A stretch of 64,000 nt of DNA from Lingula anatina (taxonomy: Eukaryota > Animalia > Brachiopoda). The stretch is from the NCBI GenBank assembly GCA_051362555.1, contig CM120640.1:26212225-26276224 (forward strand), given 5' to 3'. Position numbers and translations under genes: made by a program. Below the pieces are notes generated by a model. The model was not told the origin of the DNA, made no database searches, and saw only the letters and a program-made list of their open reading frames with translations. Of this stretch, positions 31,101 through 34,737 are shown in pieces. Within the stretch, counting starts at the first letter, position 1; each line of letters opens with the position of its first letter.

Positions 31101-34100
31101 TTTTTATATTAATTGATGTGATGCAAGGGAGAATAGACGAGGCATTTGTCAGGGAATATATTTCATTTCTTTATATTTCCTAGCTTGCTCATGGTGCTGA
31201 CCCAACTATGAAGAACCAAGAAGGCCAAACACCTCATGACTTGACCACAGTAAAATATTTTAAACTTCTAATGAACAAATTTGAAATTAGTTGTATAATT
31301 GATAATTTACATATAGTCCTGTGACTTTTTATGTAAAGGAAGTGTTTGTAGAGGCATTGGAATTTGGATCAGTTATAAAATGCCCTGCCATAGTTGTACA
31401 AGCTTAATTTGAAAAGCCTTGTGGGTCATATTTTAATGTTTGCATATTTTTAATTGCAATATTGCTTTAAAATAAATGTGGACCTTTGAGTTATTTTGTG
31501 CAAGCTATACCAAGGATTAAAATTCTATACATTTTTGTAATCTTTGTTTCCAGGCAGAAGATGTTAAAGTGTTGCTGCAGGATGCAATGCCCCCTGCTCT
31601 GATGCCACCAACAACCACCAAAGCTGCAGTCCCTACTCTAGCAGGCCCAGTGTAAGTTATTGGAGACTCAAAACTGGGTTGTTTATTAAATAAATTTAAG
31701 TCTACATAAATGAATGAGCAAGGTGATTCACAGATTTACTAAAGCTCCCTTAAAAGTGTTTGTTAATATTTTCTCTGTACTGATCTAGTGGTTGAAACTG
31801 TTCCATTTAAGTTATTGCCTTCTTTTATAATAAATGAAATTCAAAGCATAGTGCATAAGTTCTCCAACATTGCTCAAGCTGAACAGGGAAAGTTGGACTG
31901 AAATATTAGCCTTGAAAGCATTCAGCATGAAGTCTTGATTTGTTTCTTACAGGGGTGCCTCTAATGGTCTAGATAATTTAGTTGGAGCAGTAGGTGGTAT
32001 TGGTATCAGCCAGCCTAACACTGGAGATGGCTGCATAGACAGAGGTAGAATTGAAGGCGAAAAGGACCTGGAAAATATGAGTGTTGCATCTTTCCTCAGC
32101 AGCATTGGCTTAGATCAGTTAAAAGACATTTTTGAACGTGAACAGATCACTATGGACATTTTAGTTGAAATGAGGCACGATGAACTTAAAGATATTGGCA
32201 TTAATGCCTATGGACATCGACATAAAATTTTAAAAGGGATTGAAAAACTTCCTTCTGGTGCTGCTCAACGTAAGTACTATTTAGAACAATGTGCCTTTAT
32301 AGGTTTTAACTGCAATAGACTCCTGTTTAAGATGCAATTTTTATAAAGATGATGTATTTAATATTTGAGATTGTTTTGTAATAAATTTTGGGTCCTTATT
32401 ACCTGTTTTATGCGTGCAGTATATCTAATTACAGTCACAAGTATTTAAATGTGTTGTGTCTCCTTTCAGCCATGCCGTTCACCCCAGCCACACACAGTAA
32501 TCCACAAGGCACCATTCTCATAGATCTTACTACTGATGATGCAGAATATGTGTCTGTGGAGGAACAGGTGAGTGATTCTGAGTTACTGTGTGAGAAAGCT
32601 AGATTTCAGCATTGTCCGCCAAACGATGTGCCAGCAAAGGAAGTCCTGTAATCACATTGTTAAATTCCTTAGTGTTTTAATTCATACCCATCCTATGTAG
32701 CCTTTATAATTTTTAGGATTAATAAAAAGAGTACTTTCATCTCTTACATCAGCATTTTTTTCCTATAGAGCATATCATCTGATGGAAATTTGTAACTTGA
32801 TTGTGCAAATATATTTTACTGTATACTTTACTCATGTTTTTTTCCCCAACTTGGAATGACGAAAATTTTATTTCCACGATTACAGATGCAAAGCACAATT
32901 CGTGAACATAAAGACAATGTGGGAGGAATATTTGATAAATATAATATTATCAAGGTAAGTGAAAAAAAAAAAGAATTACATTAAATATTCTTTGTTGTAG
33001 AGAAATCAGAAACAAATTGTAATATGTTTGCTTCAAGAGCTCTATGTGATTGTGAGATTTTTTTCTAATCTTCACATCAGATTCAGAAGATCCGTAACAA
33101 GAGGCTATGGGAGAGATATCAGCACAGGAAAAAGGAAGTTGCAGATGAAAACCATGGCCATGATAATGAAAGGCTGCTTTTCCATGGCTCCCCATTTATT
33201 AATGCTATAGTTCACAAGGGTTTCGATGAGAGGCATGCTTACATTGGAGGCATGTTTGGAGCAGGTGAGTGACAGAAACACATAATAATAAAAGATTTTG
33301 GATAAAAGGAGATGTCTCTAGTGTCACATATATTCATTGGAGTTGTACCTCACTTGTACATCTCTTGTGTAATGAAAGATGTAAAATGGAGACATAGAAG
33401 CAGCAAGTTTGCTTCTCAAATTGAGATAAGGCAATGCGTGTCTCCAGTTGCTCATTTTGTATTGGTTTTGTGATTCATATGCCTTTCTTTTATTGAATGA
33501 CAGGTATATATTTTGCTGAGAATTCATCTAAAAGTAACCAGTATGTGTATGGCATTGGTGGAGGAACTGGATGTCCAGTACACAAGGACAAGTCGTGCTA
33601 CATTTGTCATAGGTAAGAACCTCTTAGTAACATAGCAATAAGCTTAAGTAGTTTCATTCAAGTCAGAAACTTTTTTAAGAAGTACTAATTTTAAAAAATG
33701 AAACGGATTTTGCAAATATATATTTTTATCATTGGTATGCAAATTATTGAAAAATAGCTATTGTTTTTATTTTCTATGATCAGAGAAGATGGGATACACC
33801 TGCAACAAGGATGATTCAAGTTTTATTTGTGCTCATCTTTTGTCTTAGCTTTGCTTTGATATTTATATATCCAATCTATTTCAGGCAGCTATTATTGTGT
33901 CGTGCCACACTTGGCAAGTCATTCCTGCAGTTTAGTGCTGTCAAAATGGCCCATTCCCCACCAGGTCACCATTCTGTTATTGGCCGGCCTAGTATGGGTG
34001 GTTTAACATTTGCTGAGTATGTTGTGTACAGGGGTGAGCAGGTGGGTAAACTATACATCAGGATTATTACTTTCTTTCAGACAGTTGGTTCTTTGTCGTG

Positions 34101-34737
34101 TGACCCTTGGGAAGTCTTTCCTACAGTTTAGCGCCATCAAAATGGCACACTCGCCTCCTGGCCACCACTCAGTGATCGGGCGGCCCAGCATGGGTGCCTT
34201 GACCTTTGCTGAATATGTGGTGTACAGGGGAGAGCAGGTAGGTATTTGTGGTGCTTTAAGGCTGAATTAGGCCAGGTGTGTTAGGCCGCAATCAGAATAG
34301 CGGACTAACTAGTCCACGGGTCAAATATGGCTGACCTACTTTACCACGGGGAATCTATTTAGTGTCTATAATTAGACAGCAAGCATTTTTGTCGGTTGAC
34401 ACATTTGGCCTGTGGACTAGTTAGTCCACTGATATGAATGCAGCTGTAGTGAGTTGATTTGGGGACTACCAAGAGTTTGCACAATATATATATATATATA
34501 AGAGACTTGCACTTCATCAGTTGTTTTCTATGTGCTTTATTGCCTGAAACATTTTAGTTGTGAAAGCTTATCTGGAAGAAACAAACACACCACCCAGAGA
34601 GTGGATTTTTGTCTTAGTTAAAGTCTAAATTTTAATGTTTAAACAATTAAACACTGATCTTCAACATTTTGCAGGCTTATCCAGAATATCTCATCACATA
34701 CCAGATAGTAAAACCAGAAGCAGATGGGAAAAAGTAA
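25153..34737 (+). CDS. TNKS: Tankyrase (ankyrin repeat clusters, SAM, PARP catalytic domain); no N-terminal HPS tract
   Basis: Exons 25153-25339, 26041-26265, 26423-26631, 26748-26842, 27062-27128, 27345-27531, 27713-27834, 27968-28059, 28230-28308, 28485-28656, 28824 or 28848-28927, 29157-29308, 29443-29509, 29679-29777, 30015-30108, 30235-30360, 30532-30641, 30879-31001, 31184-31249, 31554-31651, 31953-32269, 32470-32567, 32886-32954, 33081-33264, 33504-33612, [33885-34041 or 34081-34237], 34675-34737. Repeated [10 protein letters not shown] ankyrin motifs, SAM ([11 protein letters not shown]...[11 protein letters not shown]), H-Y-E triad ([27 protein letters not shown]), Zn motif [12 protein letters not shown]. 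Confidence 0.97.
33885..34237 (+). other. TNKS: Tandem duplicated, probably mutually exclusive tankyrase exons A (33885-34041) and B (34081-34237)
   Basis: Both 157 nt with the same phases, intact ttcag acceptors and CAG|GT donors, 48 of 52 aa identical, separated by 39 nt. Confidence 0.9.
34284..34445. mobile_element. Degenerate MITE with ~55-bp TIRs, related to the 10700 and 38672 elements
   Basis: GGCCGCAATCAGAATAGCGGACTAACTAGTCCACGGGTCAAATATGGCTGACC vs reverse complement of the right end AGCTGCATTCATATCAGTGGACTAACTAGTCCACAGGCCAAATGTGTCAACC. Flanks TTA/GTA. Confidence 0.7.

Follow-up and report, generated by a model that had tools for sequence, protein, structure and literature searches.

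Two old tandem exons used mutually exclusively in the catalytic domain of the Lingula anatina tankyrase

In the brachiopod Lingula anatina, one tankyrase gene carries two old tandem versions of a catalytic-domain exon, and these are used mutually exclusively in mRNA, in sample-dependent proportions. The gene lies in a 64,000-nucleotide stretch of contig CM120640.1 (assembly GCA_051362555.1, positions 26,212,225 to 26,276,224 of the forward strand), hereafter the window, to which all coordinates refer. Exon A (33885..34041, + strand) belongs to isoform X1 and exon B (34081..34237, +) to isoform X2. Between them is a spacer of only 39 nt (34042..34080, +), which holds the donor of A, the acceptor of B and probably also the branch point of B. 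Exon A, the variable form, encodes L1087, A1091, V1103 and G1123 and has the lower-scoring splice sites; exon B, the steady form, encodes V1087, V1091, I1103 and A1123 and has the higher-scoring ones. A sequence-only reading of the window had proposed this pair, and the coordinates, lengths and translations that it gave for both exons hold, as do the end of the upstream exon at 33612 and the start of the downstream exon at 34675.

The tankyrase coding region (25153..34737, +) comprises 27 coding exons per isoform and encodes 1156 aa with ankyrin repeats, a SAM domain and a PARP catalytic domain. Pfam Ank, SAM_1/2 and PARP were found in both isoforms, so that the combination defining tankyrase (TNKS/PARP5) is present in one chain. 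When spliced through exon A, the coding sequence of the window translates exactly to RefSeq isoform X1 (XP_013391607.1, 27 exons), while exon B equals the corresponding part of isoform X2 (XP_013391608.1). A protein search with exon A indeed matched tankyrase-1 isoform X2, in which the segment is that of exon B. The two isoforms constitute one protein cluster with no further member, and over 1156 aa each they differ only by L1087V, A1091V, V1103I and G1123A. X1 has 26 introns of 116-701 nt. The pair occupies the second-to-last coding exon position: the donor of the constitutive upstream exon (33504..33612, +) joins 33885 (A) or 34081 (B), according to RNA joints and the intron map, and the last exon, with its coding part up to the stop codon at 34675..34737 (+), is joined from 34041 and 34237, according to RNA joints and translation. 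Elsewhere in the gene, two ankyrin-repeat exons (27059-27132 and 29440-29513) are 77% alike, which is an ordinary internal repeat.

Exons A and B are each 157 nt long, are both preceded by AG and followed by GT, and share 121 of 157 nucleotides and 48 of 52 residues. Of the 52 full codons, 4 encode a different residue (L/V, A/V, V/I and G/A) and 26 others carry a synonymous difference, which leaves 22 unchanged. The split Arg codon shared with the upstream exon, AGG in A and AGA in B, is the 27th synonymous difference, and the recount thus agrees with the earlier hand count of about 27 and 4. Identity is 48/52 at first, 50/52 at second and 23/52 at third codon positions. When the window was compared with itself by blastn, the A/B repeat appeared as a 78% match over 170 nt (E 3e-33), far beyond chance. 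A comparison of synonymous and non-synonymous change, which the sequence-only reading had suggested, gave pS 0.79, past the correctable range, and pN 0.046 (Nei-Gojobori). Comparison of the introns flanking the two exons revealed residual similarity only in the form of short AT-rich matches. Because synonymous sites are saturated, pN is low and the flanking introns retain no residual similarity, the duplication is old and the coding sequence constrained, with both copies under purifying selection. Both exons are also expressed, and the view that they are neither an artefact nor a pseudo-exon is borne out. The contrary idea, that two alleles or collapsed paralogues were placed in tandem by the assembly, could appeal to the high heterozygosity of the species (1.6%, as given in the accessible part of PMC4595640) and to the fact that all listed read runs were of RNA. 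However, a divergence of 23% with saturated synonymous sites is far beyond that of alleles; A and B join the same flanking exons in 7 of 8 RNA runs, and reads over the flanks differ by a few single letters. We attach next to no weight to this idea.

The RNA evidence comes from raw reads of 8 of the 9 listed runs labelled as the same species (X8 was left out), belonging to three studies, P1-P3. Reads were placed at 92% likeness; for X1-X6 about 6% of each run was read, for X7 and X9 25-30%. Over the 8 runs there were 111 upstream-to-A, 47 upstream-to-B, 60 A-to-downstream and 54 B-to-downstream joints, which sum to 171 A and 101 B joints, 272 in all. In the same order, the counts per run were 25/8/20/5 (X1), 38/4/21/10 (X2), 38/4/9/4 (X3), 2/6/0/6 (X4), 0/6/0/8 (X5), 3/2/2/6 (X6), 1/8/2/5 (X7) and 4/9/6/10 (X9). 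Each exon is thus joined to both flanks, bypassing the other. Beside the 272 inclusion joints of these 8 runs, neither an A-B joint (34041 to 34081), nor a 39-nt deletion, nor a double-skipping joint is listed, at a floor of 3 reads. The sequence-only reading had predicted this mutual exclusivity and had proposed counting these junctions by RNA-seq; it named absence of one exon from transcripts, or routine splicing of A to B, as grounds for giving the idea up. Exon A is present in 7 of the 8 runs and exon B in all 8.

The proportions differ among samples. Exon A accounts for 151 of 186 joints (81%) in P1, 7 of 41 (17%) in P2 and 13 of 45 (29%) in P3. For upstream joints alone, the A:B ratio is 101:16 in P1 versus 10:31 in the other studies (Fisher p 6e-13, from reads that are partly dependent). 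Per million records, B joints amount to 0.67-1.67 in all 8 runs, and A joints to 3.6-4.8 in P1 and 0 to about 0.9 elsewhere. The samples using A also contain more tankyrase mRNA. In our reading, B is the steady form and A is added in samples with high tankyrase. Run X6 alone has intronic depth, the spacer included, as expected of unspliced RNA. X7 and X9 carry fixed single-letter differences from the window, one of which, at 34132 in exon B, is synonymous.

The spacer suggests how exclusivity could be enforced. It is shorter than all 26 introns of X1, a third of the shortest one. The earlier statement that it is shorter than any other intron in the window stands for the introns of the tankyrase gene, to which the measurement was confined. 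The adenosines of the spacer that are usable as branch sites all lie 7-28 nt from the A donor (these are candidate branch points). The steric threshold between donor and branch point is given as roughly 50 nt in the accessible parts of PMC5740500 and PMC7969005, and the whole 39-nt spacer, with its candidate branch points, falls below it. A spacer of 39 nt is likely too short to be spliced out, and U1 on the A donor and U2 on the B branch point would compete for the same 30 nt. Moreover, double inclusion and double skipping each shift the reading frame, as had been claimed from the exon length and as translation of both products bears out. Joining of A to B, or retention of the spacer, gives a stop ending 106 nt before the last junction; skipping of both exons gives a stop inside the last exon. 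Transcripts with A joined to B or with the spacer retained are therefore likely targets of nonsense-mediated decay (NMD), judging from their predicted stops, and decay of frameshifted double inclusions would be a likely back-up. We regard exclusivity as likely steric and backed by NMD. It could also be only apparent, if such transcripts are made without any steric block and are then removed by NMD. The position of the stop in both products would suit this, as would the spacer depth that X6 shows alongside its other intronic depth; in the accessible part of PMC5740500, moreover, 60% of human clusters of mutually exclusive exons (MXEs) have lengths not divisible by three. We consider this explanation unlikely.

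Two other classes of mechanism were tried and rejected. Competing RNA pairing of the docker/selector type has no such pair among the 20 inverted repeats of at least 10 nt in 33500-34750, all of which are AT runs or a repeat element. Incompatibility of U2 and U12 sites does not fit either, since the donors CAG/GTGGGT and CAG/GTAGGT score like ordinary donors of the gene.

As for the choice between the exons, the acceptor of B scores 8.9 versus 5.4 for A, and the donor of B 11.7 versus 10.4 for A. These scores fit the possibility that B, with its better splice sites, is the default exon. In cells with more tankyrase, a factor specific to tissue or stage would then turn on exon A. A different possibility is that the exons are kept for control at the RNA level, the choice between them or its coupling to NMD setting the dose of tankyrase, and hairpins accounting for some of the divergence between them, the G/A codon included. 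The larger amount of tankyrase mRNA in samples using A is consistent with this. So is a predicted hairpin in which the 3′ end of exon A pairs with the A donor and with the first half of the spacer (33993..34058, +), a weak lead with a folding z of -2.9 in a window picked after the fold was seen. A similar hairpin, with weak statistics, is predicted over the B donor (34186-34253). The segments from -52 to +19 around the A and B donors have the two lowest folding energies among the 27 donors of the gene, as stable a fold is predicted for 3 of 40 orthologous single-copy exons, and the predicted pairing covers the G/A codon. However, 63 and 62 of 1000 synonymous shuffles of the two exons fold as low (p about 0.06 each), wider windows are unremarkable (z 0.19, -0.08 and -0.97), the B hairpin disappears in the wider fold, and the fold comes from a single species. 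We judge control at the RNA level to be very unlikely as the reason why the pair persists.

The exon aligns gap-free with human tankyrase structures. The catalytic Glu of the H-Y-E triad, E1128 in Lingula and E1138 in TNKS2, lies inside it, as had been claimed, and is the same in A and B. Residues were placed by sequence numbering anchored on TNKS2 E1138, an AlphaFold2 model from a 15-row alignment having pLDDT below 50 over 1012-1143; this numbering reproduces the residue types named in papers. Lingula positions 1087, 1091, 1103 and 1123 correspond to TNKS2 1097, 1101, 1113 and 1133, of which 1097 and 1101 presumably lie in a core strand. For the head interface that activates filaments, the accessible part of PMC9712121 names A1116, H1117, S1118, P1120, G1121, H1122, R1143 and E1145. 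The equivalents of all eight are identical in A and B, and the two enzymes would thus share both the catalytic Glu and the exon's contribution to the head interface. TNKS2 G1133 sits between P1129 and L1136, adjoining the gate residue L1134, in the B-loop of the acceptor site. Open and closed states of this loop distinguish TNKS2 from TNKS1, and L1136Y reduces the potency of a TNKS2-selective inhibitor, according to the accessible part of a preprint (bioRxiv 10.1101/2025.03.04.641305). The earlier suggestion that the G/A change could affect inhibitor sensitivity is thus well placed, in that the substitution does fall in a loop known for inhibitor selectivity. The homologous segments compared came from 384 of 393 stored proteins and from 62 locus exons, and 148 of them are distinct. 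Gly stands at position 1123 in 147 of the 148, including those of insects, cnidarians, molluscs and vertebrates, and exon B is the sole Ala. Position 1091 is Val in 141 of the 148, and Ala occurs in exon A only. From these comparisons, isoforms A and B likely differ subtly in activity.

In the other species sampled, the exon is single. A second copy is absent, within up to 1.5 kb, from all 80 metagenome loci; in 50 of these the exon has the same AG/GT boundaries, and in 24 both neighbour exons are present, with an intron on each side and a single copy between them (L073-L075 not counted). In L073-L075 an additional intron, about 560 nt long, splits the tankyrase exon after codon 9-10, without duplication; the matches in L073 are near 914-946 and 1501-1629. 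Apparent second copies in L004, L009, L013 and L053 were rejected as chance matches (E above 1). In all 21 other species sets with at least two annotated proteins each (49 proteins; molluscs, insects and a tunicate), the proteins show no difference in the segment. No other brachiopod or phoronid is among the named matches listed (best 120 per search). M1121 is common to A and B and absent from the 146 other segments; this suggests that the exon was duplicated on the Lingula lineage. In an exon tree (156 nt, 62 orthologous copies), A and B fall together in 38% of bootstrap trees, and the tree was not used for dating. The pair is apparently confined to one lineage.

On balance we think it somewhat more likely than not that one gene holds two old tandem exons, that each mRNA receives one of them, likely because of the short spacer and with NMD as a likely back-up, and that the resulting enzymes are likely subtly different. 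Differences between the proteins, above all G1123A and V1091A, would be the reason why the pair has been kept. A more specific version, which we put forward tentatively and hold to be rather doubtful, is a regulated switch between two enzymes: A, with the canonical loop, would be produced as needed, and B would serve housekeeping, its B-loop Ala altering opening of the acceptor site and, through it, growth of PAR chains or substrate choice.

Several points weigh against the favoured explanation. First, the absence of A-B reads cannot separate a steric block from NMD, because the A-B product is also an NMD target; rare splice events may be hidden by the floor of 3 reads, and read mates can count twice, so that joints are not fully independent. 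Second, the shift between A and B cannot be told apart from effects of study, library type and population, in samples without tissue or stage labels, and the splice-site matrix, built from 25 sites of the tankyrase gene alone, is a weak estimate. Third, the duplicated pair was not found in any other species sampled, so that the switch is seen in Lingula only. Finally, each of the four substitutions is conservative, homologues show free variation at 1087 and 1103, and no paper on the Gly at TNKS2 1133 turned up in the literature search. In contrast to the other TNKS1 chains listed, the deposited sequence of PDB 4w5s_A (human Tankyrase-1) has Ala where G1123A falls, which may mean that the change is tolerated.

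These last points would also suit an explanation in which the switch is real and the proteins are equivalent: the exons split the contexts of expression, both must stay intact, and the substitutions are tolerated drift. The conservative nature of the changes and the Ala of 4w5s_A agree with it, as do the shared catalytic and head-interface residues, the single private change in each copy, which is what drift would give, and the saturated synonymous sites, which indicate ample time. However, G1123 is otherwise invariant across insects, cnidarians, molluscs and vertebrates, and tandem exon substitutions are, according to the accessible part of PMC9741552, for the most part tissue-specific, and the surface residues that they change lie near ligands. 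Equivalence of the two proteins is a serious alternative, although we consider it less than probable.

Around the gene, the intron after exon B contains a MITE-like inverted repeat (34285-34444) with 45-nt arms 70 nt apart, and RNA reads from other places pile up within it on 34290-34340. Further long inverted repeats or palindromes (10699-11446, 16321-16454, 38671-38956 and 59357-59568) are probably remains of transposons. Judged by eye, the neighbours are presumably genes for an ES1/GATD3 protein (1900-3050, +), a PP1 glycogen-targeting subunit (9573-10580, -), GINS4/SLD5 (23000-24700, -, head to head with tankyrase), a CaM kinase (49600-52100, +) and dolichol kinase (55800-57000, -). A long open frame at 18444-19841 (+) resembles, also by eye, what we take to be the reverse transcriptase of a non-LTR retrotransposon.

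If the version with a regulated switch and an altered B-loop in enzyme B is true, a brachiopod has built a two-enzyme tankyrase system inside one gene, and filaments mixed from A and B would make Wnt or telomere output graded. A natural experiment would thereby exist on TNKS2 G1133, an unstudied gate residue in an enzyme that is a drug target; the appeal of the pair lies in a change placed at the otherwise invariant B-loop Gly of such an enzyme. If the isoforms differ, the equivalents of TNKS2 G1133 and V1101 are naturally chosen positions that tune the PARP acceptor site. How this site works is poorly resolved by structures, and drug design relies on it to tell TNKS2 from TNKS1. With its 39-nt spacer, the pair also provides a compact lophotrochozoan example of what is likely a steric splice switch. 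Against its importance stand the seeming confinement to one lineage, the presence of both isoforms in RefSeq and the fact that the class is well known.

The products of A and B are exactly the RefSeq L. anatina tankyrase-1 isoforms X1 and X2, which are automatic annotations only (also in UniProt). The opinion that the switch had not been described is therefore right in that no paper on it was found, nor any study of the exclusivity, regulation or function of X1/X2, and wrong in that both isoforms were already in these databases. TNKS is unnamed in the main text of PMC5740500 and PMC9741552, whose supplements, or databases such as MetazExp, may list the event, and tankyrase is unmentioned in the accessible part of PMC4595640. 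The pair is an instance of the well-known class of homologous MXEs, its exons being neighbours of the same length and frame, with homologous sequence and their own splice sites, each joined to both flanks; an instance in the tankyrase catalytic domain was not found in the literature. As far as the accessible parts of PMC9741552 and PMC5740500 go, tandem duplicated exon substitutions and homologous MXEs are likewise tandem exons of the same length, one per mRNA, with conservative substitutions and sample-specific use. Those sets are rich in ion channels and in muscle and nerve proteins, whereas the Lingula pair lies in the catalytic segment of an ADP-ribosyltransferase. Alpha-tropomyosin, alpha-actinin and exons 4a/4b of OGDH share with the Lingula spacer a donor-to-branch distance below about 50 nt (accessible part of PMC7969005). 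In contrast, they have a mapped distant branch point near the donor of a longer intron, and Lingula has a 39-nt spacer with candidate branch points.

The sequence-only reading had compared the pair with human TNKS1 and TNKS2. Like A and B, the human pair offers two catalytic domains whose differences lie around the acceptor site and the B-loop. Two acceptor-site differences named in the literature (TNKS2 A1112 and L1136) fall inside the segment that the A/B exon encodes. The human proteins are whole-gene paralogues, whereas the Lingula isoforms share the rest of the protein. Moreover, A and B are identical at the equivalents of A1112 and L1136 and differ at 1097, 1101, 1113 and 1133 instead. 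The analogy is thus loose; nevertheless, the two human positions lie 1 and 3 residues from two of those at which A and B differ.

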